From Candidatus Latescibacterota bacterium (GTDB taxonomy: Bacteria; Latescibacterota; UBA2968; GCA-2709665): a stretch of DNA of 64,000 nt. Below, one piece after another: positions 21,748 to 48,900 of the stretch. The DNA is taken from the NCBI GenBank assembly GCA_965219995.1, contig CBDCOX010000002.1, positions 1,024,001 to 1,088,000 on the forward strand, written 5' to 3'. A program made the position numbers and the translations under genes. The notes beneath the pieces were generated by a model. That model ran no database searches and was not told the origin of the DNA. It saw only the letters and a list, made by a program, of their open reading frames with translations. Each line of letters starts with the position of its first letter. The first letter of the stretch is position 1.

Positions 21748-21790
21748 TGCGTTTTCTCGTTATCGGGATTGGTTTTATATAGATAAAAAA

Positions 21791-21836
21791 ATATTTAGTC
21801 TTGTCTAAATATAAGACGATAATCCAAAATTGTCAA
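21791..21836 (-). promoter_or_regulatory. sigma70 promoter overlapped by palindromic DtxR/MntR-type operator
   Basis: Minus strand TTGACA (21836-21831), 17 bp, TATATT (21813-21808); palindrome ATATTTAG-TCTTGT-CTAAATAT (21791-21812). Confidence 0.78.
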
Positions 21837-22019
21837 ATAAACAATGAAACTGCGCCACTCCGGCAGAGCGGCACGACATTGTATGCCGATCAGCGCTTTG
21901 GTCTTGCAAACGACGCCTGCATACGTGATCGCTCCACCTTGCCGACAAAAAGACGTCGCCGGGCAGGCTGGTACCCGGCGAACTCCACCAAACCGCGTGC
22001 GATGATCTGACGACGCCCT

Positions 22020-22502
22020 CTATCCCTCCCTATCGACGGAATCCCTTTCGTACTCGCGTTCGCCGAAGAACCTCAACACTTCCATGAACCGATCGGGCGG
22101 GTGATATCCGGGCATCTTGTAGAGCAGCGTCCCGTCCGGTTCCAGGAACAACACCGTGGGAAACCCGCTTACGTTGTAGACCTGCGCCAGTTCGGCGAAA
22201 CTCAGGTCGCGACCCACAATCGTCAGTCGCGACCCGTTGTCTTCCGCATTCAGCTTGATGGGGATGAATTTCAATGCCATGTACCTGCGAATGTCTTCCC
22301 TGGAAAACACCTGACGATCCTGTCTTTCACACCACCCGCACCAGGTTGCATAGACGCCAATCATCATCAGCTTCTCTCCACCCGCCGCCTTCCGGAAGCC
22401 GTCTCTGGCATTGTACCACCTGAATGAACCTTCCTCCTTCGCAACGGCGAGTCCGGCAAACAGGAACCCCAACCACACACCGGTCTGAAAGATGCGTCTC
22501 AT
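22020..22502 (-). CDS. Exported thioredoxin-fold protein (SoxW-like)
   Basis: Signal peptide, YATWCGWC, FIPIKLNAE, VSGFPTVLFL, MPGY. Confidence 0.85.
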   Translation of the reverse strand: MRRIFQTGVWLGFLFAGLAVAKEEGSFRWYNARDGFRKAAGGEKLMMIGVYATWCGWCERQDRQVFSREDIRRYMALKFIPIKLNAEDNGSRLTIVGRDLSFAELAQVYNVSGFPTVLFLEPDGTLLYKMPGYHPPDRFMEVLRFFGEREYERDSVDREG

Positions 22503-22869
22503 ACTGTGAACTCCCGCGTGCGATCCACGCCTTGCAGGTTCGCGTTGCACGTGGCGAAATGGGTGTTCGAGAACCTCATTGCCGTCAAGTTACGGAACTC
22601 GGTTGCGCCGGGCAACCGGGAAAATCGCGATAGCGCCCGCGGACGGGACCCAAAAAGACGTTGCGGTCGCCGGACAATAGGCTGATATTTCCGCAAACAC
22701 GCGGGTTCGCGATTCCCCGGACCGGCGAAGTGAAGTCTCTCGCTTCGGGGGGCACGGCGGCGCAATTCCTCCAGGTCCCCGGCGAAGGAAAAGCCCAGGA
22801 AAGTTCCTGACGCCCGGTCCGAAATCCCGATACAGTCTTACGCGCGATATTGAATCGAGGGTACCTCTT

Positions 22870-23976
22870 ATGAAGCGGATCAGGTCCGGCATCTTCATCA
22901 TGCCGTTCCACCCACCGGGCAAGACGCTCGGACAGTGCCATGACGAAGACATGGAACTTGTGATTCGCGCCGACGAACTGGGCATCGATGAATTCTGGAT
23001 TGGCGAGCATCATACCATGGTCTACGAAAACATCGCCATGCCTGAAATATTCATCGGCGCGGCACTGCGCGAAACCGGGAAGATCCGGCTGGGACCGGCG
23101 CCCGTGTGTCTGCAGCAACACCACCCGGCGCTTGTCGCAAGCCGGTTGTCGTTTCTCGATCATCTTTCCAAAGGGCGGCTTAACCTCTGCTTCGGACCCG
23201 GAAGCGTACCGACCGACCTGGAGATCCTCGGTATCGACCCGCAGGACAGCGCTGCGATGGTCGCCGAATCAATCGAGATGATTCTCGGGCTCTGGCTGAC
23301 GGATCCGCCCTATGATATCGATGGGCGGTTCTGGCGGATCAGGATGGATCGCACCATCGACCCGGAGGTCGGCCTCGGGGTCATCCACAAACCCTTTCAG
23401 CGACCTCATCCCCCGATCTCAATGCCAATCTCCTCGATGAACTCCGAAACGGCCCGGGAGGCGGGCAGGCGCGGCTTCCAGCCCTTCGGCCACAGCCTGA
23501 TTCCATCGAACGTCCTGGCGAACATCTGGACCACCTACGAGCAGGCAGCCCTGGCGGCCAGGCTACGACCGGACCGTTCGGACTACAAGATCGCAAGGGC
23601 AATTTACCTGGCCGACACGACGGAGGAGGCAGTCAGGCGTGCAAGGTCCAACACCGTGGCGGCTAATTTCGAATATATCGGTACGCTGCTCAAACGCGGC
23701 GGCAGGGGAATCGGCATGTTCAAGCGCGACCCCGATATGCCCGACGCGGACTGCAATCTGGACTACCTCATGAACGAACAGATCATCGCCGGCGACGTGG
23801 ATACGGTTCTCGAACGGCTGGAGGCCCTGCGAGTGGAGGTTGGTGACTTTGGCACCCTTGTCATGATGTCATACGATTGGGACGACAAGGAAAGCTGGCT
23901 GCACAGCCTCGACCTCTTCGCGAAAGAACTGATGCCGGCCCTGAACCGGTTGCCGCCCGCCGAACAGGTGGCGTGA
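22870..23976 (+). CDS. LLM-class flavin-dependent monooxygenase
   Basis: GIFIMPFHPP, ADELGIDEFWIGEHH, HHPALVASR, LDHLSKGRL. Confidence 0.9.
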   Translation: MKRIRSGIFIMPFHPPGKTLGQCHDEDMELVIRADELGIDEFWIGEHHTMVYENIAMPEIFIGAALRETGKIRLGPAPVCLQQHHPALVASRLSFLDHLSKGRLNLCFGPGSVPTDLEILGIDPQDSAAMVAESIEMILGLWLTDPPYDIDGRFWRIRMDRTIDPEVGLGVIHKPFQRPHPPISMPISSMNSETAREAGRRGFQPFGHSLIPSNVLANIWTTYEQAALAARLRPDRSDYKIARAIYLADTTEEAVRRARSNTVAANFEYIGTLLKRGGRGIGMFKRDPDMPDADCNLDYLMNEQIIAGDVDTVLERLEALRVEVGDFGTLVMMSYDWDDKESWLHSLDLFAKELMPALNRLPPAEQVA

Positions 23977-24036
23977 GCTCCAACCGCGAACGGCATTCGA
24001 ACGGTGACCTGTTTCGCGGACCGGACGCGGAACGCA

Positions 24037-24070
24037 GAAGAGGCGACGCCGTGAACGGCGTCGCCTCTTC
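24037..24070. terminator. Hairpin between convergent genes (terminator or REP-like)
   Basis: GAAGAGGCGACGCCGT-GA-ACGGCGTCGCCTCTTC, 16-bp perfect inverted repeat. Confidence 0.65.
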
Positions 24071-24101
24071 CGGTCAGAAACCAGACGTTCATCCGGCCTG
24101 C

Positions 24102-24668
24102 CTACTCCATCTTTTCCGCCGCCTTGATGGGAAACTCCTTTTCGAACCTCTTCCTGTGATTCTGTTCCCACCCGTCGATTGACTCCCGAAGCGCCGCGAC
24201 CATCTGGGGCTCGACCTGCAGCAGATCCTTCATCTTAATGGGAAACCTCTTGCCGTCAGGATAAAAACTCCCGTCTACCACCAGTTCCTGGAGAAAGGGA
24301 TACGCGGACACCAACTCACCGGGCGAAGGATGCAGCGGAGTGACGCGCGTATGGACCTTCAATCCCATATAGGCGAGGTGACTGAATCCCATCCGGAACC
24401 GGACGTGAGCGCCCACCTTGTTCACGCGCACTTTGTGGCCCGCGTACAGCTCGTCCAATCGCGCCGCCAGCAGTTTCCACCCCTGCTTGAATTCGTTCAG
24501 TGGCATCGCAGTGTCGCCGGCAAACGCCGCTTCCCGGTCCTTGGCGAGTCTCTTTGCCATCGAAAGGGACTTGTCATCCAGCTTTTTGGATTTGGCATCC
24601 GCCGAGGGTGCAAAGCAACCCGACAGACAGATGAAGAAACCCACCGAAGTCGTGAGAACGAAACGCAC
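24102..24668 (-). CDS. Hypothetical exported protein / lipoprotein
   Basis: GGGAGG RBS then GTG; hydrophobic N-terminus with LSGC; the N-terminal part of the 301-aa track ORF looks spurious. Confidence 0.55.
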   Translation of the reverse strand: MRFVLTTSVGFFICLSGCFAPSADAKSKKLDDKSLSMAKRLAKDREAAFAGDTAMPLNEFKQGWKLLAARLDELYAGHKVRVNKVGAHVRFRMGFSHLAYMGLKVHTRVTPLHPSPGELVSAYPFLQELVVDGSFYPDGKRFPIKMKDLLQVEPQMVAALRESIDGWEQNHRKRFEKEFPIKAAEKME

Positions 24669-24892
24669 TATGGCCTCCCCCGATTTAATCCACGATCGCG
24701 CGACACCCTTTGCCTGAAAAAGGCAACACAGGACACCCGAAATGACGCAAGGTGCAACAGTTCGGGTTCTGAACAGACAGGAGGTTAAGGAATTCCAAAC
24801 TGTCGCGCAAGCATTTTCTCCGGCGCAGAAGAACACCCGCGCCCTGTGACTCGGGGTGCGCGGGTGCAGAAGATTCCGGAACCGGGCTCTGT

Positions 24893-25066
24893 TCAGGCCG
24901 AAGGCGGCTGCTCGATGTCCAGCAGGGATTTTTTCGAAGCGCCACGCTGCCCGCCGCAGGAGGAACAGCCGCCTGATCCTGCCAGGAACGGACTCACGAA
25001 TTTCCACACCGCCCAGAAAGCACAGGCGATCGCAACACCCGCCGCCACCAGCGACTGCCAGTCCAT
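24893..25066 (-). CDS. FeoB-associated Cys-rich membrane protein
   Basis: MDWQSLVAAGVAIACAFWAVWKF TM helix then GGCSSCG; starts 4 nt after the feoB stop. Confidence 0.8.
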   Translation of the reverse strand: MDWQSLVAAGVAIACAFWAVWKFVSPFLAGSGGCSSCGGQRGASKKSLLDIEQPPSA

Positions 25067-25070
25067 GGAT

Positions 25071-27314
25071 CTACCCCCATCCCAGCGCCATTGCGCCCTG
25101 ATAGGCCGCAAGCGCGCCGAAATAGGCCAATATCGTCATATAGGCGAACGCCAGCGTCGTCCATCCCCAGGACCGTGTCTCCCGGCGGATGACTGCCAGC
25201 GTCGATGCGCACTGCGCACAAAGCGCGAAAAACACCATCACTGACAGCGCTACAGGGATATTGAACACACGGCGTCCATCCTCCCAGGTCGCATTGCGAA
25301 GCGCGCCGCGCAGGTCTTCGGAGGATTCGTCCACATCGCCGCTCAAACTGTAGATGGTACCAAGCGTGGCGATGATGACCTCCCGCGCAGGGAAAGATGC
25401 GAGTGTGGCCATCCCGATGCGCCAGTCCCAACCCAGGGGCCGGACCGCAGGTTCTATCCAGTGGCCGGCCCGGCCCAGATAACTCTCATTCAGGAGGTCG
25501 GCGGCCATGCGTGCGTCCAGGTCCGAAAGCGTTTGCTGCAGCTGCTCGCCCGAAAGCGTTGCCGTCGCCGTCTGCCGGCGGCGTTCGTACTCTGCAACCG
25601 TGTCCGCCGACCTGGGGAAATACGCCAGCGCCCACATCACGACGGTCGCGGCCAGGATGATACTGCCCGCCCGCACAAGGAACGCTCTCGAGCTGTGATA
25701 GACCCTGAGGCCTACCGTTCGTTTGTCCGGGACTTTGTAAGAAGGGAACTCCAGAATAAAAGGCGGCGTTTCGCCTCTCAATAGCGTTTTCTTCAGAATC
25801 CAGGCGACGGGTGCTGCCGCCGCCACACCCACGCAATACATGGCAAAAAGGGTCAACCCCTGCAGACCGACCCAGTCCCCCAGGACCGCCTTCGCCGGGA
25901 TAAATGCACCGATAAGGATGGTGTAAACCGGCAGTCGGGCCGAACAACTCATCAGCGGCGCCACCAGGATGGTTACCAGCCGGGTCCGACGATCTTCGAT
26001 GGATCGAGTCGCCATAATGCCCGGTACGGCGCACGCAAAGCTGGACAACATCGGGATGAAGGACTGACCCGAAAGCCCGCACTTTGTAAGGATCCTGTCC
26101 ATTAGCAGGGCCGCACGTGCCATATAGCCGCAATCTTCCAGAATGGCAATAAAGAAAAAAAGGATGGCGATCTGCGGCAGAAAAATGACGACACCGCCCA
26201 CGCCCGCAATGACACCGTCCTGTATAAGGCTCTTCAGTGCCCCTTCCGGAAACCACGCGCCGACCCATCCGGACAACCAGGCAAACAGACCGTCGACCGA
26301 GTCCATCAGAGGCCCGGACCACGCGTAGATGGCCTGAAATACGACGCCCATTATGGCGACGAACAGGAGCGTTCCCATTAGCCTGTGAGTCAGCACGCGG
26401 TCGATGCGGTCCGAAGGCGTCCTTTGAAGGTACCGGGGCTTCGATTCGCTTTGGGCAAGCACATGCTTGATCCAATTATAGCGAACCTCCGATTCCAGAA
26501 CGGATAACGCTGAATCCGTCGAAAACCGGCCCCGGGCTGTAGCGAGCTCTCCCCGGACGACATCCCCGTACGCTTCGATCAGCCGGCGCTCCGCGTAACC
26601 GCCTTCGTCGACGATCGCCCGCAAAGCCTCCGCGCGGCAGGAGGACACACTCTGTCCATTGGTTGATCGCAGGACATCCGCAAGACGGTCGACGGCCACG
26701 GGGAATCCCTCCGGGAATCCCTCCGGGAATCCCGCCAGAAGCGGAGATCCCCCGGGACGTCCATTGAACAGCACCCGTCCCAGTTCGCGGCGCAGGTCGC
26801 CCAGCCCCCGGTTACGGTTTGCACAAACCGCGACCACCGGTACTCCCAGGCACCGGGAAAGTCCGTCGACGTCGATTCGTATGCCCCGGGCATCCGCCAC
26901 ATCCATCATATTCAGTACGACGAGTGTGGGCAGGCCGAGTTCGAGCACCTGCGAGACCAGGTAGAGATTCCGATAGAGATTGGATGCGTCTACAATGGCC
27001 AGAACCGCGTCCACCTTAGGCTCGCCGGGCAGACGTCCGAGCAGCACGTCGGCGACGATCATCTCATCCGGCGCGTGAGCGGCCAGACTGTACGTCCCCG
27101 GCAGGTCGACGAGATCCACGGTTCTGTCATCGGACAGCCTGAGCCGCCCGGACTTACGCTCGACCGTTACGCCGGGATAGTTACCCACATGTTGAAAAAG
27201 ACCGGTAAGACCGTTGAAAAGTGTGGTCTTACCGGTATTGGGATTGCCCACGAGAGCGATCGTATGGCGTTGATCTGTCCCGGTGTGCGGTCCGCCGGAC
27301 AACACCCTGGCCAT
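25071..27314 (-). CDS. feoB: Ferrous iron transport protein B (full length)
   Basis: GNPNTGKT, GNYPGVTVE, DLPGTYS, NMMD, LEDCGYMAR, SFACAVPG, MSCSARLP, CAQCASTL. Confidence 0.96.
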   Translation of the reverse strand: MARVLSGGPHTGTDQRHTIALVGNPNTGKTTLFNGLTGLFQHVGNYPGVTVERKSGRLRLSDDRTVDLVDLPGTYSLAAHAPDEMIVADVLLGRLPGEPKVDAVLAIVDASNLYRNLYLVSQVLELGLPTLVVLNMMDVADARGIRIDVDGLSRCLGVPVVAVCANRNRGLGDLRRELGRVLFNGRPGGSPLLAGFPEGFPEGFPVAVDRLADVLRSTNGQSVSSCRAEALRAIVDEGGYAERRLIEAYGDVVRGELATARGRFSTDSALSVLESEVRYNWIKHVLAQSESKPRYLQRTPSDRIDRVLTHRLMGTLLFVAIMGVVFQAIYAWSGPLMDSVDGLFAWLSGWVGAWFPEGALKSLIQDGVIAGVGGVVIFLPQIAILFFFIAILEDCGYMARAALLMDRILTKCGLSGQSFIPMLSSFACAVPGIMATRSIEDRRTRLVTILVAPLMSCSARLPVYTILIGAFIPAKAVLGDWVGLQGLTLFAMYCVGVAAAAPVAWILKKTLLRGETPPFILEFPSYKVPDKRTVGLRVYHSSRAFLVRAGSIILAATVVMWALAYFPRSADTVAEYERRRQTATATLSGEQLQQTLSDLDARMAADLLNESYLGRAGHWIEPAVRPLGWDWRIGMATLASFPAREVIIATLGTIYSLSGDVDESSEDLRGALRNATWEDGRRVFNIPVALSVMVFFALCAQCASTLAVIRRETRSWGWTTLAFAYMTILAYFGALAAYQGAMALGWG
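26701..26733. repeat. 12-bp in-frame tandem repeat within feoB
   Basis: GGGAATCCCTCC x2.75, encoding GFPEGFPEGFP. Confidence 0.75.
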
Positions 27315-27324
27315 GCGTTAAACC

Positions 27325-27627
27325 TCAAGAGATCGGACTGAGCCTCACGGCCGTCGCATCGTGCATCCGCAAACAGAACCGGGCGTCTTCCACCTGCACG
27401 ACCAGCCTGCCGCCGGCTCGAAGCATGCGTACGCGTACTCCCGGGCGAACACCCAGTTCACGCAACCGGGAAGCAAGGGGTGTATTCCCTACAACCGACT
27501 CGACCGTGCCTTCGTCGCCCACGTTCAGTCCGGCAAGCGAGCCGCGGAACAACCGCCGGTACCGGTTCTTTCGATCGGGCCGGAGCCGGCCGCCGCGAGC
27601 AGCCAGTTGCATCAGTCGCGCCACCAT
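27325..27627 (-). CDS. feoA: FeoA family protein
   Basis: LAGLNVGDEGTV...RLRELGVRPGVRVRMLR; immediately upstream of feoB; start uncertain. Confidence 0.85.
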   Translation of the reverse strand: MVARLMQLAARGGRLRPDRKNRYRRLFRGSLAGLNVGDEGTVESVVGNTPLASRLRELGVRPGVRVRMLRAGGRLVVQVEDARFCLRMHDATAVRLSPIS

Positions 27628-27658
27628 TGCGCCATCCTTTTTCTGTCGTGTCGTCGGA

Positions 27659-28189
27659 TTAACTCTCAGAACCGATTCTGAGCAGACACTCATCCTCGCA
27701 GATCGGACAATCGGCCTCGTCGTGGCAGAATTCTCCGGTCTGCCAGAACGCGTTCAGAAACTCCCGCGCTTCAGGCGTTTCCGCAAGCAGGAATCTCACA
27801 AAATTCAACAATTTCTCGCTGGTTTCCTCGCTCAACAGGTGCTCAACCTTGCACGCGTCCACTTCCGACTGATGGCTTTCGACCTGCAGCACGTCCTTCA
27901 GAAACTTGCGGACGATGGCGCGCTTGGCGAGTACCAGGTCGACCAGCCGCTCTCCCCTTTCGGAAAGCCGCAGGAATTTGTTCTCGTCTTCCTGCACGAA
28001 CCCCTTCTGTCGGAGCGCTTTCAACGTAAGTGACGCGCTGCCCCTCGTGATATCCAGATATCTTGCGACGTCGGACACACGCGCGTATCCATACCGGTCT
28101 TTCAGCTCTCTGATGGCGGCAAGGTGATGAGCGACACTGTGCGTGATCTCATTCTCCTCGAACGCTTTCCATACATCGGAAGATGCCAT
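27659..28189 (-). CDS. DtxR/MntR family regulator with Cys-rich C-terminal tail
   Basis: GYARVSDVARYLDITRGSASLTLKAL HTH; DACKVEH; tail CHDEADCPICEDEC. Confidence 0.88.
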   Translation of the reverse strand: MASSDVWKAFEENEITHSVAHHLAAIRELKDRYGYARVSDVARYLDITRGSASLTLKALRQKGFVQEDENKFLRLSERGERLVDLVLAKRAIVRKFLKDVLQVESHQSEVDACKVEHLLSEETSEKLLNFVRFLLAETPEAREFLNAFWQTGEFCHDEADCPICEDECLLRIGSES

Positions 28190-28230
28190 CCGGCCCCCCT
28201 TTCCGCCGCCAGGCGCCTGAACCAGCCAGT

Positions 28231-28287
28231 TGTTTTGCGCATAAAACACTCGTTATAAATTTATACAACATACAGGTCGAAAGTCAA
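28231..28287 (-). promoter_or_regulatory. Promoter and palindromic operator of the regulator-feoA-feoB operon
   Basis: Minus strand TTGACT (28287-28282) and AT-rich -10 region TATAAATT; palindrome TGTTTT-GCGCAT-AAAACA (28231-28248). Confidence 0.55.
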
Positions 28288-33827: not shown

Positions 33828-34071
33828 CGATCATCGCAACGACACGGACAATGAAGTGCCGTTGTATCATCATTCGGTAAAGACGAGAACTGATCATCGT
33901 GCAAAGGGCACGACTTGAAATTGGGCTGACATCTATTCTGCGGCCCTTGTAATGCGGCCCCAGAAGGGTCGCATTGATTCAATTGGCTTGATAAATCAAA
34001 CGGTCGAGTCTATATTTGATTGAGACAATGACCTGCGGGAACAAATCCCACGAATCAAATAAAGGTAAAAG

Positions 34072-34452
34072 ATGACGGCTGGCGAAGCTGCGAAGTCCTT
34101 GTCGTATGCGAAACAGCATCTGAGTCGCGTGCTTGCTGCTGCCTGGGACGACCCCGTGGATTGGACAGACTTGACCATTTATGGCTTCTATTGTCTTGAA
34201 GCTGCGATAGTTGCGGCAGCCACGCACACTCGCTTGAGTTTCAGAAGGTCTCATTCAGAAAAGGCACATGCAGCGAAAGAGCTTTCCGTGTCACACGATT
34301 TACCGGATGTCTCCGGCTTCCTTTGGGTCCTTAATAACGCGCGAAAGGCTGCTGCGTATGGAGATACAGATCTCCCGGACCTCGACGCCGAGGACGTGGC
34401 TGCAAAAATCGAAGCATACGTGGACGCGGTGTCCACCTTGCTGGAAAAATAA
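34072..34452 (+). CDS. HEPN domain protein
   Basis: Helical 126 aa: YGFYCLEAAIVA, RRSH, LNNARKAAAYGD (R-x4-Y), AEDVAAKIEAYV. Confidence 0.72.
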   Translation: MTAGEAAKSLSYAKQHLSRVLAAAWDDPVDWTDLTIYGFYCLEAAIVAAATHTRLSFRRSHSEKAHAAKELSVSHDLPDVSGFLWVLNNARKAAAYGDTDLPDLDAEDVAAKIEAYVDAVSTLLEK

Positions 34453-34456
34453 CTCG

Positions 34457-35161
34457 ATGAGTAATCAAACACGAACGCGCAAGCGCCCGAAGATCGAGAC
34501 GACTTTGCCCTGCTTCCTCGAATCTGCAGAGAAATGGCCAAGCGTTGCGGCGAGGGAATGGGTCGAGCAGTTGATCCAAATGGCGTATGATCGAGCCGAT
34601 ATTCTGGCGATTGTCGCCTTCGGATCAATCGTTCGCGACGTCAGCCTTAGCGCCGACGTCGACTTGTTGTTCGTGTACGAATCGGAGAAACCCACATTTG
34701 CGACGCCGCCTCTGGATGTCGATGTCAAGGCGTATCGCAAGACCGACGTGGAATCACTCGTCGCACGGGGTCATGAGCTTCTTTGCTGGTCCATCCGATT
34801 CGGTACGGTACTTCACCAGAAGGATCGATACTGGTCGGATTTACAACAGACATGGGCGAGGCATTTGCCCTTACCTTCCGCCACGGTCGCTGAAGAACGC
34901 GCCGAGAGAGCAAGAAGGCTTCTTGAAGATCTCGGAGTGATCGGCGACGATGATGCGGTTCAGGAACAGTCAATCACGATGTTGACACACCTTGCTCGCG
35001 CCCGTCTGATCCGGGCCGACGTCTTTCCCGCATCACGTCCGGAACTACCGAAGCAACTGAGGTCAATAGGGGAATCTGCGTTGGCATCCCAGTTGACCGA
35101 TGCTCTGCAGAAACGCTGCGATTTAATGGAAACTCACGAGTCATTCTCGCCGCAAACGTGA
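34457..35161 (+). CDS. Nucleotidyltransferase (MNT/pol-beta-like) with C-terminal helical extension
   Basis: IVAFGSIVRDVSLSADVDLLFV (GS-x9-DxD), third Asp in VDVKAY; starts 4 nt after the HEPN stop. Confidence 0.78.
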   Translation: MSNQTRTRKRPKIETTLPCFLESAEKWPSVAAREWVEQLIQMAYDRADILAIVAFGSIVRDVSLSADVDLLFVYESEKPTFATPPLDVDVKAYRKTDVESLVARGHELLCWSIRFGTVLHQKDRYWSDLQQTWARHLPLPSATVAEERAERARRLLEDLGVIGDDDAVQEQSITMLTHLARARLIRADVFPASRPELPKQLRSIGESALASQLTDALQKRCDLMETHESFSPQT

Positions 35162-35182
35162 GGCAGCGAAAGCTTGCATTCG

Positions 35183-35226
35183 GAGAAAGCGTAGGGGCGA
35201 CGCATGCGTCGCCCCTACGCTTTCTC
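35183..35226. repeat. GTAG-type REP-like perfect palindrome
   Basis: GAGAAAGC-GTAGGGGCGACGCATGCGTCGCCCCTAC-GCTTTCTC, 44-bp perfect palindrome. Confidence 0.8.
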
Positions 35227-35480
35227 TGTTCCTGTCCGCACGCTTTTGATTTCCCGGCAGCTGCGTAAGAATCTCCATGCGGTCTCTAAACAAACCAGAC
35301 ACTTCTTGCGTTTAACAATATAGACACGGTATAAGTGGATTTTCTTGCTGAGTTGGCGTTTATAGAGTTACCTCTGTGGATCTGACATCCTACATTCACA
35401 CGGAGACTCGAGTGGATTCTGTATTGGACATAGAATTCTCAACCTCACGGGAATTTGTCCCAAGGATACGACCATTGTAT

Positions 35481-35996
35481 ATGGACGAATCAGATCTGGT
35501 GGTCAGGGCACAGAACGGCGACATCGAAGCATTTGAAGAGCTTGTAGATATATACAAAGGCATGGTCTTGTCAATTGGGTACCAGATTGCGGGAAACGGT
35601 GATGACGCTCAGGATATCTGCCAGGAAAGCTTTATTAAGCTCAACAGAAACATCCGCAAGTACACGCAAACACACAGATTCTCGACGTGGCTATATAGAT
35701 TGGTTGCAAATGCAGCGATCGACTACCTTCGAAAAGAGCGAAAGCGCCGGGGCGTGCGCCTCGAGCCCAACATGCCGGAGCCGAATCGGACGTTCGACCA
35801 GGATCTTAGACTCTCGCTCGAACAGATTCTCGTCAAGCTCTCACCCAGGCAGCGAATCGCCTTTGTGTTACGGGACCTTCAAGGTTTTCCGCTGGAGGAA
35901 GTAGCGACAATACTCCGGTGCACCGGCGTGACTGTCCGGGTTCACCTTCACAATGCCCGGACACGAATCAGAAAAAACCTGGAGAACGAGATATGA
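35481..35996 (+). CDS. ECF sigma-70 factor
   Basis: LVVRAQNGDIEAFEELV, DAQDICQESF, FSTWLYRLVANAAIDYLRK, LSPRQRIAFVLRDLQG, TVRVHLHNAR. Confidence 0.93.
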   Translation: MDESDLVVRAQNGDIEAFEELVDIYKGMVLSIGYQIAGNGDDAQDICQESFIKLNRNIRKYTQTHRFSTWLYRLVANAAIDYLRKERKRRGVRLEPNMPEPNRTFDQDLRLSLEQILVKLSPRQRIAFVLRDLQGFPLEEVATILRCTGVTVRVHLHNARTRIRKNLENEI

Positions 35997-36634
35997 TCTG
36001 CCGTATCGTACGGTTGTTCTTGCCGCTTTACATTGAAGACGACCTCCCTGACTGGATCGCGTCCAGGCTCTCCCGCCATCTTGCACATTGCGATTCATGT
36101 GTTGCTGACCGTCAGTCATTCATGGTTTCTCAGTGCGCAGTGAGGGAAATTGCCACGCGCGAGATTCCACCGACGCAACCAGAGCTGTTTTCGACGCAAA
36201 CCGGATCTGGTCTTCAAGTCGCCAGGATCGATCAAGAGCCAATACATACCAGAACCAACCGTCAATTTGAGTGGAGACCATTAATATCGTATTCGGTCGC
36301 TGCCGTTGTGCTGATTGCAGCCATCGGATATCTGATGGAGCATTCGAGCGAGAATACCAAAGGGCAGACTGCCTATTCGGATGATTCTGAAGCGCGGACC
36401 GTTTTGACCGAAAGAAAGCCTCCCGAATTCCCGCCGCAACCCCGCGCAGAAATCACCGCATTGATGAGACGCTTGAATCCGAGGCCACACCTGACAGATG
36501 AAGATCTGGATGCCGAGTATCCCGTACTCGCCTCAGTCAACCAACCCGATTGCGTCCCGGTAGTTTTTCGTACCAATGACCCGTCCATAACGGTTGTGCT
36601 ATTATTGTCACGGAAAGGAGCGAGCCACCAATGA
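35993..36634 (+). CDS. Zinc-finger (zf-HC2) transmembrane anti-sigma factor
   Basis: ATGA overlap with sigma; HLAHCDSC (HxxxCxxC); one TM helix (VAAVVLIAAIGYL); periplasmic tail VVFRTNDPSITVVLLL. Confidence 0.85.
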   Translation: MICRIVRLFLPLYIEDDLPDWIASRLSRHLAHCDSCVADRQSFMVSQCAVREIATREIPPTQPELFSTQTGSGLQVARIDQEPIHTRTNRQFEWRPLISYSVAAVVLIAAIGYLMEHSSENTKGQTAYSDDSEARTVLTERKPPEFPPQPRAEITALMRRLNPRPHLTDEDLDAEYPVLASVNQPDCVPVVFRTNDPSITVVLLLSRKGASHQ

Positions 36635-37452
36635 AAATGAGCGCCTGTGGAGTGATTTCGACGACTGGGATATTCGGATTTTGCATTGTCGCGCTTGCAA
36701 CGGTTTTAATGGCGTCGCCGTCTGACGCCAAAAGTTCGGGACGTTCCATCAGAGCAGCCGACCTGGAGGAGTTCCTCCCACCGGGTGTAGAGGTGTTCGA
36801 TCTGAAGTATATCTCGACCGGGGATTTCGCCGGCCTTCTATCCGTCCTCGAACTCAAGACAACGAAATTCAGTCCATCTGATCAAAGTGGGCAAACAAGG
36901 GTTTTCATCCGATTTGAGGACCCCTCGTCGGCGGAAATAGCGAGAAGATTGCTGGCCAAACTGGACATCCCTCCCCGACGGATCGAAGTTCGATTCCTTC
37001 AGGTACTCGCTTCCAACGAAAGTTACTATGAATGGTCCCGGGGATCGAAGGGCGACAAATACGAAAGGCCGGTAGCGGACGAGTCCCTGCTGGAACAACT
37101 GAAACAAGCGTTCAAATTTCGTCATTTTAACCTCATAGACAGCTTTAGAATGACTTTGAACGCGGGTATAAACGCGCGAACTCAGAATAGGCCTTCGCGA
37201 ATACAGCTAGGAGACGCCTCTGGCGAAGAGAAACTCGACATCTTATCCGGTCACGCAAGCTTCTCGCTGGATTTTATCGATGATGGCAAGGGCGTGATTC
37301 AAATCCGAAATCTGAGCGCGCAAGCGGCGACGCATGTTCTGAATACTTCGCTGAACGTAAAAAACGGCGAAACCATAATTGTGGGAAGCTCAAGTCTCAT
37401 CAAGGGCAACAACGAGTTGATAACCGTTGTCACCGCCAGAACGGTGGATTGA
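36631..37452 (+). CDS. Exported protein resembling a miniature secretin
   Basis: ATGA overlap; signal peptide; VFDLKY, LLAKLDIPPRRIEVRF, TSLNVKNGETIIVG, ELITVVTARTV motifs. Confidence 0.6.
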   Translation: MKMSACGVISTTGIFGFCIVALATVLMASPSDAKSSGRSIRAADLEEFLPPGVEVFDLKYISTGDFAGLLSVLELKTTKFSPSDQSGQTRVFIRFEDPSSAEIARRLLAKLDIPPRRIEVRFLQVLASNESYYEWSRGSKGDKYERPVADESLLEQLKQAFKFRHFNLIDSFRMTLNAGINARTQNRPSRIQLGDASGEEKLDILSGHASFSLDFIDDGKGVIQIRNLSAQAATHVLNTSLNVKNGETIIVGSSSLIKGNNELITVVTARTVD

Positions 37453-37483
37453 ACAAGGCGTCCGTTGCTGATGTATTAACCAA

Positions 37484-37515
37484 AAAGCCTGATATGCAAT
37501 GACATATCAGGCTTT
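37484..37515 (+). terminator. Intrinsic terminator of the ECF operon
   Basis: AAAGCCTGATATG-CAATGA-CATATCAGGCTTT followed by ATTTAT. Confidence 0.7.
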
Positions 37516-37585
37516 ATTTATGTGATTTTTAAGGATGGACAGGGCTGGCAACGCGGCGCAGAAGACGGGTCGAGCGAATACAGGA

Positions 37586-37699
37586 AGGGCGCCCACAAGG
37601 GACGCCCCTACACGACAGGTAGCCGGATTTGTAGAAATGCGGCCGTGACCCAAATCCCCCGAGCGATAACAAATGGGGCGGTTCGCGAACCGCCCCTAC
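37586..37699. repeat. Two GTAG-type REP-like units
   Basis: AGGGCGCCCACAAGGGACGCCCCTAC (37586-37611) and GGGGCGGTTCGCGAACCGCCCCTAC (37675-37699), sharing CGCCCCTAC with the 35191 palindrome. Confidence 0.7.
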
Positions 37700-43043: not shown

Positions 43044-46000
43044 TCACCACTCCTTTTTCCAGAAAATCCCGAGTGATTTGCGATCCCGCTCACGTTCGTT
43101 GCCCTCTCGCTGCTGCGCCTCCAGCGTGACTTGCGGCAACAGTTCGTACTCCACCACGACTTCCCTCCCCCTTGCCTCGGAAACGTCCTGTGCATAGCTG
43201 ACAAAGAACCGTGATCCGAAATACTTACCGGCCCGTACCCGGGTTGCCGAGTTTCCCATGCCCAGGTCGATTTCCACGACGTCAAGGTTCAATCGCCGGC
43301 CGATGGAGCGTTTCAGCTGGTTCGCCGCGACGCCGAGTACAAGGACCGCGGCCTGGCCCTCCAGGCGGCTCCCGACGCCGCCTTCCCCGCCCATCAGACC
43401 GGAGACATCGTCGGCCGGCCTTCCGATCAACAGGTACGAGAGGATATCGGATTCGTCCAGGGGCGGCGTCGTATCACTTTCGAGGGAAATATTGGGTTCC
43501 ATCAGCGTCCCGCCTACAACGACGCTGATCACCGCGTTTTCGTTGGAAACCAACCTTATCCTGCGCGTTGCAATGATGTAGAGATCGGGATTGATATCCG
43601 AACTGCCGCGGAAGTTGATCTCTCCGCGGTCGATCGCGAAACCGGTGTTCTGAAACTCGTACCGGCCCTGTCTGCTATCGAGAGATCCGTAGACCCGGAT
43701 TCCCCCGCTGTCCTTCACCAGATCCACGTCTCCCGAAATCTCGACGTTTAATTCCCTGTCCCGGATCCACACGTTGCGGGAGGCCGATACCCGGACGGCG
43801 CAGTTCAGATTTCGAAAGAGCGGCGACGACATCCAGGCGACGTCCGTGGGGTATTCGATGAAATCGGACAGCCTGAGTACGGCGCGGGACAACGCCACCC
43901 TTCCATCCATGCGCCCTGCGTCCAGGGTCCCCTTCAATTGAAGGTCGGCATTGAGTGTGGCTTTCAGCGAAGTCAGATCGATCGCCTCGAACTCATCGGC
44001 TCTTAGTGAAAGGTCATAACGCTCCACGTCGAACTGGTTCAACGTCACTTCGCCCTCTAGCGCGACCCTTGTTTTCTCCCGGCCGGTTTCGAAGCGGTCG
44101 AGGACGATCCTGTTCCCGTCAAAGTTCAGATCCGCTTCTACTTTTTCGAATGTCGTATTCAGGGGCACGATTCGCGCCTTTCCATCACGCAGCTTCAGCC
44201 ATCCGTGACGGAGGAGCCGCTGCGGCGTGCCCTTCACGGTCAGGTCGACCGCCAGAGATCCCTCCGCGTCCTGCACCGCGCGAACAATCCCGGGGAGAAA
44301 ATTCAGATCGACGCCGGCGGATTTCAGCGATACCTCTACGGGACCCCGGGGAAACAGGTCCGCCCACCCGTCTGACGTCAGGTTCAGTGGAAAATGCCCT
44401 TTCGTGGCGGCCTCCCTGCCGGAGGACTGCACCAGTCTCAGATCCACGGTGGCACGTTTGCTCCGATACCCCAGCGTTCCCGAGACTTCCTTCAACCTGA
44501 CACCTGCAATGACAGCATCCCGAAGCGCCAACTCAGTTTTCACGCGGGGATCGTCCAGCCCGCCGAACAGCGCAAATTTCCCGGTAAACATCCCGCTCAA
44601 CTCGCCGGCCATCCCGAGAAGACCCGACCATATCTTCAGGTCCACGTCGCTGAGGGTCACGACGATGCCCTCTGCCTGCCCGCTGTGTCCGTGCGCCAGA
44701 ATGGCGCCACCGTCCCCCACCAGCCGGAAATGCTCCACATCGACGCCGTCTTCGAGCCGATACGTCACTCTTGAGAGGCCATCGCTGGACATGGACACGC
44801 CGCCCACCCCGACAGACAGGGAGTCCAGTTCGAGGACATATACGTCGTCAGCCCACCCGGCCCGGCCCCTGGCGTGCAGTTGATCGATTTGGTCCGGACG
44901 GCTGCCCAGAGCGAAGGATATCCCGTCCTGAGTGAGTCCCAGGTCCAAAGCCAGGTCGTGGACCGTGCGCCCACCCCACACAAGGGAATCCGCGCGGACC
45001 GCCAGCGCTCCCTGCGACAGTTGCGACCCCGTCATCCCGAGTTTGACCCCCTGGATCGGGATACCCCTGAAATTCAAGCTGTCTGCCAGCAGATCCACCA
45101 CGGCGAAGGGTTTCATCCACGCGCCGCGAATGCGCGCCGCAAATGTAGCCGGCGTCCCCGTCAATTCCGTCCCCACGACGTCGTCAAGCATTCTGAAATC
45201 GCCGACCCGCCCCCTTGCCCGGAGGTCCAGGCTGTCGCCCGGTGCGATCCAACCGGCGCCTTCCACGTGCGCCCGCGTACCTGCCAGGAACAACCGATCC
45301 ACGATCGTCCGGCGACCCTGCTGTATCAGGCTCGCTCGTGCGCTATCCAGTTTCCCTCCGAGAAACCGCGACGCTTCCACGATCACGTCCGCGTTGGCCT
45401 GTGCCGAATCCGGGTGAAATCCCCGTCCGCCGAGTCCAATCTGCAGTGACACGTCTTCCAGGAGATCAGGGCGCCGAAGAAACCGACCCATCGCCAGACC
45501 GTCCACCCGCACGCCCGCACGGTAGGAGGGCTGACGTCCGCCGGGGTTCCGGAATTGCCCCAGATCGACCCTGGCGTGTCCCCTGACCACGCCGTACCCG
45601 TCCGACAGGCGCACGCCTATCGTGTCGAGAATCACGATACCCCGCCGTAACGATCCGCGAAGAGAGAGTCCTGTTGCTCGAGGCAAACCCTCGATATTCA
45701 AGACGTCGATATTGGCTTCACCCCGCCAGATTTCATCGCCCGTCCGCCTCAGACGGACCTCACCCGTGAGGTCGGTGACCCTCGGAAGATGCCGCGACAG
45801 CGCGGTCAGGTCCACGCGCTCCAGGCGTGTTCTCAATTCATAGTCCGGCGCCGCCCCAATCCGGTTTACCAGCAGTCTGGCCGTCAGCCCCCCTGCCTCC
45901 CCCTCGGCCTTCACGTCCATCAGGAGTCTTCCGTTGCCCAATGACGTGACGAAGTTCGCCGTATCGACGACCGTGCCGGAAATTTGCGCGCGGGCGATGC

Positions 46001-47075
46001 CCCCGCTGACGGTCAAGTCCGCAGTCACCGGATCCAGGCCGCGTCCCGTGAGGTGAACGGTCGCGTCAAAACGGGCGTCCATGCCCAACTGCCGGGCGAC
46101 CCGCATCAGATCGATCTCCGTCGCGGTCGCACGGACATCATATGCGACGTCCGCCCGCGAGAAGTCTATATGACCGGCAATGACGCAGGCGGCTGACCCG
46201 TCGTCGAGGTTCAGGTCCACGTTCGCACGGGTCGCGTCGCCCCACACCCTGCCGCCTGCCGCAAGACTTCCCGTTGGATAGGTACCGGGAAGAATGCGGC
46301 TGATCTCACCATACGCAAGAGAATCCGCACGCAGCACGAAGTCGTAATCGGGACGGGAAAGGCCGGTCATCGTTCCGTCGATACGGACGTGGGAACCCGG
46401 CGTCTGCAGCCGGATCCCGTCGAGCGTCAGCCTTCCATCGGCGAGCAGGGTCAGTCCGGACAGATCTCTGATGACGAGAGGAGGATCGAAGAGAAGGGAT
46501 CGGAAACGGCGCAGCGCCAACTCGTACCCCCCGCGACCGGCCCGAAGTCCCAAGACCAGATTCAGGCTGTCGACCCTGCCGGAGGCAGCCGCGTCGATCC
46601 GGCCGTCCACGACCTCCGCGTGGCGGATGCGGATCTGCCGTGCCGGACCCTCTTTCCACCAACCCGGGTCCGTCGCCGGTAACAGACCGACCGCGGAATC
46701 GGCGACGGCCGAGTTTTCCGGGAGACGGACCTTCGGGGCGACCAGCACGAGTGTATCGACGGTTGCGGTACCCCTCAGCAGCGTCGTCGGCCGGTACCGG
46801 GCCTTCACCGCGTCCACGACCAGTAGCGGGGCCGACTGTGCGCCGATCCGCACCCTTTCCATCCGGAAGTTCGTCAAGGGATTGCCGTGAATCCCGCCGA
46901 TATCGAAGGGCACGCCGAGGTCCCTGCTGAGCCGTTCCTGCAAATAGGTACGCAGATACGGGTTCGCGCGTCCGGATGCCAGCACCACGAGACCGAGTAC
47001 GACGACGGCGACCATGGCGGCCGCGACAGGAACGGTTATTTTCACGATACGTCTCAATGGATCCCCGTCTGGCAA
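43044..47075 (-). CDS. tamB: Translocation/assembly module TamB
   Basis: N-terminal anchor, long beta-taco repeats, C-terminal DUF490-like ILSYLLIGRP...GKYFGSRFFVSY; downstream of Omp85 gene; start uncertain. Confidence 0.88.
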   Translation of the reverse strand: MPDGDPLRRIVKITVPVAAAMVAVVVLGLVVLASGRANPYLRTYLQERLSRDLGVPFDIGGIHGNPLTNFRMERVRIGAQSAPLLVVDAVKARYRPTTLLRGTATVDTLVLVAPKVRLPENSAVADSAVGLLPATDPGWWKEGPARQIRIRHAEVVDGRIDAAASGRVDSLNLVLGLRAGRGGYELALRRFRSLLFDPPLVIRDLSGLTLLADGRLTLDGIRLQTPGSHVRIDGTMTGLSRPDYDFVLRADSLAYGEISRILPGTYPTGSLAAGGRVWGDATRANVDLNLDDGSAACVIAGHIDFSRADVAYDVRATATEIDLMRVARQLGMDARFDATVHLTGRGLDPVTADLTVSGGIARAQISGTVVDTANFVTSLGNGRLLMDVKAEGEAGGLTARLLVNRIGAAPDYELRTRLERVDLTALSRHLPRVTDLTGEVRLRRTGDEIWRGEANIDVLNIEGLPRATGLSLRGSLRRGIVILDTIGVRLSDGYGVVRGHARVDLGQFRNPGGRQPSYRAGVRVDGLAMGRFLRRPDLLEDVSLQIGLGGRGFHPDSAQANADVIVEASRFLGGKLDSARASLIQQGRRTIVDRLFLAGTRAHVEGAGWIAPGDSLDLRARGRVGDFRMLDDVVGTELTGTPATFAARIRGAWMKPFAVVDLLADSLNFRGIPIQGVKLGMTGSQLSQGALAVRADSLVWGGRTVHDLALDLGLTQDGISFALGSRPDQIDQLHARGRAGWADDVYVLELDSLSVGVGGVSMSSDGLSRVTYRLEDGVDVEHFRLVGDGGAILAHGHSGQAEGIVVTLSDVDLKIWSGLLGMAGELSGMFTGKFALFGGLDDPRVKTELALRDAVIAGVRLKEVSGTLGYRSKRATVDLRLVQSSGREAATKGHFPLNLTSDGWADLFPRGPVEVSLKSAGVDLNFLPGIVRAVQDAEGSLAVDLTVKGTPQRLLRHGWLKLRDGKARIVPLNTTFEKVEADLNFDGNRIVLDRFETGREKTRVALEGEVTLNQFDVERYDLSLRADEFEAIDLTSLKATLNADLQLKGTLDAGRMDGRVALSRAVLRLSDFIEYPTDVAWMSSPLFRNLNCAVRVSASRNVWIRDRELNVEISGDVDLVKDSGGIRVYGSLDSRQGRYEFQNTGFAIDRGEINFRGSSDINPDLYIIATRRIRLVSNENAVISVVVGGTLMEPNISLESDTTPPLDESDILSYLLIGRPADDVSGLMGGEGGVGSRLEGQAAVLVLGVAANQLKRSIGRRLNLDVVEIDLGMGNSATRVRAGKYFGSRFFVSYAQDVSEARGREVVVEYELLPQVTLEAQQREGNERERDRKSLGIFWKKEW

Positions 47076-47145
47076 GTCGAATCAGCGAATTTTCCGAATT
47101 CCGTGACGTGTACGTCCGGTTTCCGTACCGGCCGTCCGCGAACGT

Positions 47146-48900
47146 TCAAAACGCCTGTCCCAGGCTGAAATGGATCTGTCGAACGGGCTGGGACGGATCG
47201 TCGGACAGGCGGTACGCGACGTCGAGCCGCGCCGGGCTGATGGGATTCAGGTAACGCAATCCGAACCCGGCTGCCACACGCAGATGACCCGGATCGAAGG
47301 CTCCGAACCGGTCGGTCTCCACGTTTCCGGCATCCACGAACAGGGCCATCCCCAGCCCCGACATCAGTCGGGTACGAACTTCGACGCTTCCTTCCAGATG
47401 GCTCAGCCCGCCCAGCGGCAAGTCGGACGGGCCCCGTGGACCCAGCCTGTTCAGTTTCCATCCGCGCACGCTGCCTGAGCCGCCCGCGAAGAACCGCTCG
47501 AAACTTGGAATTGACACCAGAGTTCTTCGACTTAGAATCGTCCCGCCCGACACCCTGAGCGCGAGCACGCTCTTCCAGAATATCTTTCGGTACCATCGAC
47601 ACTCCCCCGACACTTTGAGGAAGTCCCTGCCGCTGGAGGCTTTCACCGCAAGTTCGGCCAGCAGGCCCCGTGTCGGGTCGAAGAAGTCGTCCCGTCTATC
47701 TTCCAGGTATTCTACGGAGAGCGACGTACGGGTGCTGTCCAGCTCGAATTCAAGGAATTCGGTCCTCACCTCAAAGACGACTCGTCCAGTCGCCCTGAAC
47801 GTCCGTTCCAGCGCCGCGCTGGCGCCGCCCCGCTTCACCCGGATCTCCTCGGGACGTTCCTGCTCCGCGAACCCCGTCATCTCCAGCCATGTCCTGCTCC
47901 CGAGTATGTACGGCTGCCTCACGCCGATTCTTGCCCTCGTCTCAAGCGCCGATGCTGAAGATTCGACGGTCAACTGGCGCGCGCCGCCACCCAGAAAACT
48001 CCGGTGCCGCCAGGACAGCGAACCCCGCAACCGCTCCTCGGTATCGTAACCCGCACCCAATTTCAGACTCCTCGGCGGCCGCTCCCTCACGACGATGGCC
48101 ACGTCCACCGGACTCGCCCGGGCAACCGTGTCGGGAATGGCAAGCGAGACGGCACGGAACGCCTCCGATCGATAGAGTTGGAGCCGGCTGTTCGAGAGGT
48201 CCTTCTTCCTGTATCCGTCACCAGCCCCGAAGGTCAGGCCGCGCAGAATCAGATCGTCTGAAACCGTTCGGTTTCCCGCGATCCGTATCTGTCCAAACCG
48301 GCATTTCGGCCCCGGAGACACCCGGTACGCTACGTCTGCCCGTTTGTTGCGGACGGCTACATCCGCGGCGACCTGGACGAAAGCGCGGCCATCGTTCTCA
48401 AGCAATTCAGCGATTTTTCTCAAATCCGACTCCCGGCCCGATCGAGTCAGCGGGCGGCCCGGTCGGGTGACCAGCGCATCCATCAGACGCACGCTGTCCC
48501 GGCCTGCATCCGCCGGCAGAAACGCCAGCCGGACGTTGGATACCACGACCGGCTCGCCTTCTTCAATGCGGATTCGAATGCGGACGAAGCCCGGACGCGT
48601 TCTGTCGATCAGGGTATCAAGCGCAGTTTCGAAATACCCCTCGTCCTTGTATCGCGCCAGAATCCGCGCAATATCGGATCGAAACACGGATGGATCGAAC
48701 GTCCGGACGTCTACACCGGGAAACACCTCGTACCAGGGATTCGCGCGGGTAAACATCAGCAGCTTGAGATCTCTGCTGGAAATCGCACGATTCCCTTCGA
48801 ACGCAACAGCGTCGACGACGGTGGAATCCGTATCCTGTGCGGAGAGGGCACCGGGAAGAACGATACAGACCATGACGGCGACGATTCTGAAGAGAATCAA
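47146..48900 (-). CDS. tamA: Omp85 family outer-membrane protein (TamA-like, three POTRA domains)
   Basis: POTRA FEGNRAIS / IAGNRTVS; ERFFAGGSGSVRGW; FVDAGNV; GFGLRY; HFSLGQAF. Confidence 0.88.
   Translation of the reverse strand: MILFRIVAVMVCIVLPGALSAQDTDSTVVDAVAFEGNRAISSRDLKLLMFTRANPWYEVFPGVDVRTFDPSVFRSDIARILARYKDEGYFETALDTLIDRTRPGFVRIRIRIEEGEPVVVSNVRLAFLPADAGRDSVRLMDALVTRPGRPLTRSGRESDLRKIAELLENDGRAFVQVAADVAVRNKRADVAYRVSPGPKCRFGQIRIAGNRTVSDDLILRGLTFGAGDGYRKKDLSNSRLQLYRSEAFRAVSLAIPDTVARASPVDVAIVVRERPPRSLKLGAGYDTEERLRGSLSWRHRSFLGGGARQLTVESSASALETRARIGVRQPYILGSRTWLEMTGFAEQERPEEIRVKRGGASAALERTFRATGRVVFEVRTEFLEFELDSTRTSLSVEYLEDRRDDFFDPTRGLLAELAVKASSGRDFLKVSGECRWYRKIFWKSVLALRVSGGTILSRRTLVSIPSFERFFAGGSGSVRGWKLNRLGPRGPSDLPLGGLSHLEGSVEVRTRLMSGLGMALFVDAGNVETDRFGAFDPGHLRVAAGFGLRYLNPISPARLDVAYRLSDDPSQPVRQIHFSLGQAF

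Follow-up and report, generated by a model that had tools for sequence, protein, structure and literature searches.

A heavily reduced secretin homologue encoded with an extracytoplasmic function sigma/anti-sigma pair in a Candidatus Latescibacterota bacterium

To characterize an unusual three-gene module in a Candidatus Latescibacterota bacterium, we analyzed a 64,000-nucleotide (nt) stretch of its genome (GenBank assembly GCA_965219995.1, contig CBDCOX010000002.1, positions 1,024,001 to 1,088,000 of the forward strand), referred to here as the window and numbered from its first letter. Three genes on the + strand encode, in order, a sigma factor of the extracytoplasmic function (ECF) type (probably 35412–35996), a single-pass anti-sigma factor (35993–36634, 213 residues) and a 273-residue protein with a signal peptide (gene 3, 36631–37452) that we call the mini-secretin. 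Its sequence profile and its predicted structure show gene 3 to be a genuine secretin homologue, though one that is heavily reduced, consisting of an N3 domain and a shortened two-sheet core. To our knowledge, the only role known for secretins is that of giant gated channels in the outer membrane, serving machines for secretion, pilus formation and phage export; the mini-secretin keeps the core fold, sheds every membrane-inserting part and is wired to an ECF sigma/anti-sigma pair. The reading we favor, with about even confidence, is that the trio forms a self-contained, autoregulated ECF module in which gene 3 acts as a periplasmic, secretin-derived, RseB-like partner of the anti-sigma factor.

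The structure of gene 3 was modeled with AlphaFold2 from an alignment of 43 family sequences (A2) and without templates, which gave a predicted local distance difference test score (pLDDT) of 85.5 and a predicted template-modeling score (pTM) of 0.75; this model replaced an earlier one built from 8 sequences, with a pLDDT of 62.6. The signal peptide, probably cleaved after the invariant A33, is followed by an N3-type domain (residues ∼50–116) and the reduced secretin core (residues 117–273). When the model was searched against the PDB with Foldseek, the top 40 matches were all secretins, with a best E-value of 3.3e-8 and TM-scores that were modest (0.25–0.47) because the secretin targets are much longer. 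Using VIA-align, the 28 best entries were again all secretins (Z 8.7–13.7), with the first non-secretin appearing at Z 7.2 and matching the N domain only, and f1 pIV aligned with residues 51–273 of the model at Z 13.5 and a root-mean-square deviation of 3.4 Å over 166 residues. A search independent of Foldseek, run across 48,161 PDB representatives, returned 12 chains with Z of at least 8, every one of them a secretin. The secretin fold that the original prediction had proposed from a few sequence landmarks is thus strongly borne out by three structure comparisons, alongside a likeness at the level of sequence profiles.

That likeness is clearest when the family is taken as a whole. Gene 3 itself scores 24.1 bits against Pfam Secretin_N (PF03958) over residues 53–116, below the cut-off of 28.2, and 15 of the 43 sequences in A2 match the same family, the best at 9.3e-13. 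With the A2 profile, 27 of the 29 matches to PDB sequences at E ≤ 10 were secretins, led by ExeD/GspD at 2.3e-11 and including GspD and PilQ, whereas a shallower 8-sequence profile produced chance matches only (E ≥ 0.8). Elsewhere in the phylum, other families carry canonical secretins, and seven of these, which score 127–144 bits on PF00263, were compared by hhalign, giving a match (probability 94%, E 1e-7) over N3 and the first barrel strand. Secretin_N, the profile and hhalign therefore all place an N3-type domain directly before the barrel domain. In an alignment of the family hidden Markov model (HMM) to phage pIV, VFDLKY falls at the start of N3, LDIPPRRIEV aligns with VDLPTDQILIE at the N3-to-barrel junction, and TSLNVKNGETIIVG of gene 3 aligns with ATTVNLRDGQTLLLGG, so that the three landmarks first read from the sequence lie, in order, where this alignment places them.

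The family comprises 8 clusters at 90% identity and 39 representatives at 50% identity (E ≤ 1e-3), 16 of which match at E ≤ 1e-10. Most members are 230–280 residues long, and five of the 43 aligned sequences carry N-terminal CarboxypepD_reg domains. The nearest Atlas clusters, annotated 'hypothetical protein', hold about 100 members of 260–270 residues, of which 62–71% match Secretin_N, and their commonest phylum is Acidobacteriota. A search with a further alignment (A5) for longer proteins (488–2000 residues) containing a fused copy found none, which is weak evidence, and a metagenome scan with a 4-sequence alignment found one locus holding a C-terminal fragment only, without an open frame. 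The homologue at L009 5896–6954, from the same genome as L023, has 352 residues because two tandem copies of MEELQKKLEEAQK, a repeat rich in lysine and glutamate, are inserted immediately ahead of the last strands. One candidate from the first locus scan, in L010, was rejected as an unrelated 140-residue protein sharing only FIDDGKGVIQ.

To locate what the mini-secretin has lost, we took anchors from the family HMM–pIV alignment and counted the residues between them in the mini-secretin, in pIV and in two canonical secretins. From the junction Asp to the pre-gate strand there are 60 residues in the mini-secretin, 81 in pIV and 83 in the canonical pair; from the pre-gate strand to the G of GETxxxG the counts are 80, 102 and 92; and from that G to the end of the last strand they are 20, 48 and 48. 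PMC8563730 places the pIV lip at 199–234, Gate 1 at G267–G297 and Gate 2 at D321–N335, and describes the beta-lip as the membrane-spanning hairpin region, with 36 residues in phage secretins and 51–60 in type II secretion systems (T2SS). The shortened first interval, 60 residues against 81–83, coincides with the position of the beta-lip, and the model has two short strands only at this point. Within the last interval, gene 3 lacks the invariant IPxLxxIPxxGxxF block, which we take to be the amphipathic helical loop (AHL). According to four papers (PMC6532946, PMC8134430, PMC10653833, PMC10499894), the AHL is the most conserved secretin region, lies between two strands, is present in all solved secretins and is essential for membrane insertion, and the beta-lip is the main part that spans the membrane. 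For the gates, the hairpins that close the channel in secretins, the HMM alignment leaves gaps of 8 residues within Gate 1 and of 23 residues across a strand plus Gate 2, positions that are uncertain at such distance.

Other envelope features point in the same direction. A Pfam scan of gene 3 found no N0/STN and no S domain, and its C-terminus, TARTVD, has no aromatic end. We also considered and rejected gene 3 as a lipoprotein: where relatives have a Cys close to the cleavage site (SPC-NA), the window's protein has a Ser, and the residue at −1 does not suit a lipobox. Since gene 3 has a signal peptide, no convincing lipobox, no beta-lip and no AHL, its product is probably a periplasmic secretin-core protein that forms no outer-membrane pore.

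The first two genes of the trio are readily classified. Gene 1 contains sigma regions 2 and 4 only (Pfam Sigma70_r2 at 2.5e-18, Sigma70_r4_2 at 2.8e-13), scores 106.5 bits against TIGR02937 (cut-off 42.9) without reaching any equivalog cut-off, and is an ECF (group 4) sigma-70 factor. It had first been called from ATG 35481, giving 171 residues; that frame and its end at 35996 stand, and the start is probably GTG 35412, 69 nt further upstream, giving 194 residues. We amend the start because the codon matching ATG 35481 reads ACG in locus L007, changes between loci in the 69 upstream nt are in-frame and partly synonymous, the open frame in L012, L014 and L015 has the equivalent of GTG 35412 as its first start codon, and a GGAG at 35402–35405 lies 6 nt upstream of that GTG.

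Gene 2 matches zf-HC2 at 29.5 bits (cut-off 22.2), and its residues C3, H29, C33 and C36, which make up an HxxxCxxC motif with an upstream Cys, are invariant in eight aligned relatives. The sequence further shows one hydrophobic span at ∼94–116 followed by ∼100 residues, and on these features gene 2 is a single-pass, class I anti-sigma factor of the zinc-binding anti-sigma (ZAS) type, with zinc binding predicted. Its periplasmic part is short and ends in a conserved helix and beta-hairpin domain. Conservation within the protein is highest over the last ∼64 residues, which are 52–57% identical to L009, the most distant sequence aligned, versus 25–34% elsewhere. No Pfam family matches these 64 residues, and a word-indexed search with the tail returned 16 close relatives only.

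We then asked whether this conserved tail is predicted to contact gene 3. Residues 40–273 of the mini-secretin were folded together with residues 118–213 of the anti-sigma factor using our own alignments, and the three ipSAE values were 0.76, 0.76 and 0.71 (median 0.76), compared with 0.00 in all three controls. At least 55% of the contacts are common to the runs, with a pLDDT of 62–64 for the partner. Of 157 solved complexes, 116 attain this ipSAE mark, as do 2 of 215 mismatched pairs; these counts are only roughly valid here because our own alignments were used. In the predicted interface, anti-sigma residues 151–206 meet residues 212–255 of the mini-secretin together with its N3 helices, and tail residues 198–206, among them 199–202, lie against mini-secretin strand 247–251. 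These models support a complex in which the mini-secretin binds the C-terminal domain of the anti-sigma factor, so the earlier suggestion that the beta-rich tail docks onto gene 3 now has a controlled prediction behind it, though a prediction is not a demonstration.

The sequences of the tail and of gene 3 also appear to have changed together. Compared with the sister genome L002, the window's DNA is 90–99% identical through the sigma gene and most of the anti-sigma gene, then falls to 84, 76 and 58% over the last ∼40 anti-sigma codons and to 43–66% in gene 3 before returning to 84% at the terminator; in protein terms, identity is 96% for sigma, 85% for anti-sigma and 47% for gene 3. The mosaic boundary is sharp (window 36500–37450 versus L002 5870–6813). 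Over the last 28 anti-sigma residues the window is 54–68% identical to every other genome of the genus, and L002 is 82–96% identical over the same residues to loci with which it shares only 38–39% N-terminal identity. All the lineages inspected retain a Trp in the last strand, apart from the window and a single database protein, P0048, whose tail is of the window's Leu type. Separately, P0002 is a 91%-identical copy of the window's gene 3. The genus accordingly holds two combinations, a Trp-type tail with a 271-residue partner and a Leu-type tail with a 273-residue partner. Tail and gene 3 thus diverged together in the window's lineage, judging from these alignments, and this pattern is suggestive only, because the two are neighbors on the DNA and one recombination tract may suffice.

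Conservation of the trio was surveyed by a profile search of 168 genomes of the phylum, 36 of which matched. Fifteen of these, including the window's own, hold a full-length gene 3, four hold remnants (two with stop codons), and the other 17 matched only through the N domain of open reading frames (ORFs) of 400–580 residues, all seven of those tested being canonical N0+N3+PF00263 secretins. Sigma and anti-sigma homologues stand directly upstream of gene 3 in 14 of the 15 full-length genomes, even where gene 3 identity is down to 26–31%, in line with what a conserved trio would look like in the neighborhood survey suggested with the original prediction. In all 13 loci inspected, the stop and start codons either overlap by 4 nt or are separated by no more than 14 nt. 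The loci from an earlier contig scan come largely from the same genomes and are not counted as additional evidence. Apart from these intact copies, C-terminal remnants of gene 3 without an intact frame occur in L008/L026, L027, L028, L030 and L042, two of them with in-frame stops, from which it appears that the module has been lost repeatedly.

No secretion machine accompanies the mini-secretin. The window's genome (5.44 Mb in 2 contigs, estimated to be 98.6% complete) contains no PF00263 match at E ≤ 1 and no match at E ≤ 1e-3 to PF00437, the ATPase of T2SS, type IV pili (T4P) and Tad systems, both of which were found in control genomes, and gene 3 is its sole Secretin_N signal. The absence of type II or type III secretion and pilus genes nearby, noted when the module was first described, holds for the 21 ORFs scanned between 20.7 and 53.1 kb, where we found iron transport, sugar-acid enzymes, TamB/Omp85 and ClpB, and it extends genome-wide for the two Pfam families. 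Other families of the phylum carry N0+N3+Secretin proteins of 405–563 residues.

Upstream of the sigma gene lies a putative autoregulated ECF-type promoter (35286–35313, + strand), with TAAAC at 35287–35291 as the −35 element, a 17-nt spacer, and CGT at 35309–35311 followed by TT as the −10 element. The TAAAC and CGT columns are invariant in an alignment of seven upstream regions, and all 14 related loci (13 genomes, about 5–6 lineages) contain AAAC-N17-CGT[AT]T at a distance of 130–196 nt upstream of the sigma match, with spacers that are wholly unrelated between lineages. A conserved −35/−10 pair with divergent spacers is the usual look of an autoregulated ECF promoter. The ∼90-nt leader between promoter and sigma gene (35320–35411) holds blocks that are invariant in seven loci, such as GGATCTGA.ATC and ACGGAGA, and has no Rfam match.

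Taken together, these features could be joined into a mechanism modeled on RseB and RseA. The zinc-binding ZAS anti-sigma factor would hold the ECF sigma factor at the inner membrane, and the mini-secretin would bind the anti-sigma C-terminal domain, with the last anti-sigma beta strand adding onto the 'GETIIVG' strand. As with RseB on RseA, this binding would govern the exposure of the anti-sigma factor to regulated proteolysis; a cue that breaks the contact would free the sigma factor to drive expression of its own operon through the TAAAC-N17-CGT promoter. Of these elements, the analysis shows what the genes are, that gene 3 has a secretin fold with parts missing, that the trio and the promoter motif are conserved and that the genome lacks secretion machinery; the contact is predicted, and the location in the periplasm, the RseB-like logic and the cue are inferred.

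Several observations weigh against this reading. At the level of the fold, gene 3 has no PF00263 match at E ≤ 1 in the Pfam scan and its C-domain does not reach the gathering score of that family, only one of the 43 family members matches PF00263 (weakly, E 0.0083), and the hhalign match stops before the secretin C-domain. At the level of the partnership, the contact with the anti-sigma factor is the output of a model fed with our own alignments and has no solved analogue, and a single recombination tract could give the joint divergence of tail and gene 3 without functional coupling. Many ∼260-residue relatives occur in other phyla, linkage to the sigma/anti-sigma pair was counted within this one, and even here L024, from the same family, keeps a syntenic gene 3 homologue (263 residues, L024 1450–2241) without the pair. 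In that record, which has many ambiguous bases, an unrelated 265-residue ORF overlaps the start of the homologue. The module is also patchy, being present in 6 of 14 other genomes of the genus and reduced to remnants in 4 genomes, and is therefore dispensable. Finally, the genome-wide motif scan gave no convincing target promoter besides the operon's own, a result that fits an output role for gene 3 too.

Such an output role is the most probable of the alternatives, and we consider it unlikely. Here the sigma factor would mainly induce the mini-secretin, which would form a periplasmic or sub-outer-membrane ring or cage that counters stress, perhaps by serving as a scaffold or plug or by spanning the peptidoglycan, and its contact with the anti-sigma factor would be incidental or serve as feedback. 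Gene 3 keeps N3 and both ring-building sheets, it occurs alone in L024, and a scan of the genome for TAAAC-N17-CGT[AT]T returned 9 matches versus about 7 expected by chance from base frequencies, among which only the operon's own lies between genes and has a suitably spaced start downstream. Two other motif sites have an ORF behind them, encoding a nitroreductase in one case and a GNAT acetyltransferase in the other; both were considered as regulon members and rejected. Because the number of matches is near the chance expectation, we regard the scan as uninformative, and since the motif was derived from related loci and target promoters may deviate from it, the missing regulon is weak evidence for an output role. 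In addition, the high-confidence predicted interface with the anti-sigma factor and the translational coupling of the genes point to a stoichiometric complex.

An extension of the RseB-like reading, which we regard as speculative and somewhat less probable still, would make the fold itself the switch, the mini-secretin having evolved from a channel to a device for signaling. Real secretins, which form outer-membrane rings of 12–15 subunits, join neighboring subunits through the barrel-edge strand. If the last strand of the anti-sigma factor caps this same strand, the heterodimer and a periplasmic ring would be mutually exclusive, so that a cue for ring assembly or ligand capture could remove the cap, leave the anti-sigma factor open to proteolysis and turn the sigma factor on. 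The ∼240–280-residue relatives in Acidobacteriota and other phyla would then be a widespread class of ECF co-sensors that has gone unrecognized, and the Trp- and Leu-type alleles would be specificity pairs.

An outer-membrane sensor of the FecA kind, as the first account of the module implied, now seems improbable. In that scenario a mini-secretin oligomer in the outer membrane would sense the outside and signal to the anti-sigma factor across the periplasm. Gene 3 does have the fold of an outer-membrane protein family, and the order of sigma, anti-sigma and outer partner recalls FecIRA. The N-terminal domains of secretins and the signaling domains of TonB receptors (STN) are related folds. 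In a Pfam scan, none of the trio proteins matched STN, TonB_dep_Rec or FecR; N0 is likewise missing, and the TARTVD C-terminus is not aromatic. Gene 3 also has no counterpart of the beta-lip or the AHL, whose roles in the membrane are described in PMC6532946 and PMC8134430. The sensor role is consequently unsupported, and because both membrane-inserting parts are missing, a periplasmic RseB-like partner is the better analogy. The remaining alternative, that gene 3 is a decaying relic of a lost secretion system, co-transcribed and without any signaling role, would fit a genome devoid of canonical secretins and T2SS/T4P-type ATPases and the remnants or pseudogenes in four others, but is highly improbable given an open frame, signal peptide and motifs kept across lineages at 26–31% identity, a family of 39 representative clusters with Atlas clusters of about 100 members, a confident AlphaFold2 model, and a conserved gene order and coupling.

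The layout of the operon agrees with its first description as three coupled genes with two ATGA overlaps and one terminator. The overlaps lie at 35993–35996 (sigma/anti-sigma) and 36631–36634 (anti-sigma/gene 3), and the terminator-like hairpin with its T-rich tail at 37484–37525 (hairpin 37484–37515, 13 pairs, loop of 6). The whole scan found 5 terminator-like sites versus 3.3 ± 2.1 expected, a total not above chance, and the hairpin at 37484–37515 is the sole + strand site between gene 3 and the next gene, which lies on the opposite strand. Its DNA is 84% identical to L002, compared with 45–65% in the gene body before it. In L002, as in L016, gene 3 is set apart from the gene that follows by a further ∼620 nt (L002 7183–7803), and these include a second copy of the hairpin that is 95% identical (window 37482–37521 to L002 7707–7746), so the hairpin may be a repeated element. 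The trio has a G+C content of 47–54%, versus 58–64% in its flanks and 60.7% in the large contig. An Rfam scan of 33.8–37.9 kb returned a single chance-level microRNA match, and PADLOC defense-system models gave nothing meaningful on the trio.

Further out, 33846–35193 holds a small ORF (34072–34452) and a nucleotidyltransferase-like ORF (34445–35161; Polbeta 23.9 bits, below the cut-off); this pair, absent from the equivalent place in L002 and located in L003 on the downstream side of the trio, has the appearance of a small mobile cassette of two genes. The window also contains a paired TamB-like gene (1343 residues) and Omp85/POTRA gene (43044–48900), which indicate that the organism has an outer membrane, and, upstream, FeoA/FeoB with two DtxR-type repressor genes (20722–28249). 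Among the listed public runs containing 35200–37600 there is no RNA dataset, and the DNA runs containing at least half of this interval include two that are labeled sponge metagenome, from two studies (X5, 0.82; X7, 0.68).

If the reading we favor is true, the module puts the secretin fold to a new use and adds a third component of a new type to ECF signaling. A sizeable family of 'hypothetical proteins' gains a name and a testable hypothesis, and a small soluble secretin core could be a convenient model of secretin-fold assembly. The module had been described as apparently uncharacterized, and our literature search likewise found no characterized ECF system with such a partner and no account in which a secretin-like protein is the partner of an ECF/anti-sigma system; the word 'secretin' is absent from the part we examined of one supplementary file of the ECF reclassification paper, the remainder of which may bear on this claim.

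Among known systems, the closest in organization are RpoE-RseA-RseB and AlgU-MucA-MucB, in which an ECF sigma factor, a single-pass anti-sigma factor and an exported protein are co-transcribed. The trio has the same gene order, with the exported protein predicted to sit on the periplasmic end of the anti-sigma factor. In contrast to RseB and MucB, gene 3 has a secretin fold, and its anti-sigma factor is of the ZAS type with an unrelated periplasmic domain; with no RseB/MucB family match at E ≤ 1 in Pfam or NCBIfam, the likeness is one of gene position and proposed role only. FecI-FecR-FecA is similarly a three-part system of sigma factor, anti-sigma factor and envelope partner (PMC11637429), whereas the trio lacks a TonB-dependent transducer and its partner is probably not located in the outer membrane.

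In comparison with the secretins themselves (GspD, PilQ, InvG, RcpA and f1 pIV), gene 3 has N3 followed by a two-sheet core in the same order, and the LDxPP-xI junction, a helix preceding the gate strand, NGETxxVG and the final strand are co-linear. It differs in length (273 residues versus 405–760 in the compared secretins), in a gate region that is 12–22 residues shorter, in the absence of N0, the S domain, the beta-lip, the AHL motif and a PF00263 match, and in being encoded in an ECF sigma operon of a genome without a T2SS/T4P-type ATPase or a canonical secretin. The truncated mitochondrial GspD of some protists is a much-shortened secretin as well, and according to PMC8134430 it retains the AHL, can be inserted into liposomes and has GspE/F/G as working partners, whereas gene 3 has neither the AHL nor such partners. 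Set beside all of these systems, the signaling architecture seems familiar, and what seems new is the fold of the partner and the existence of secretins without a lip or an AHL.

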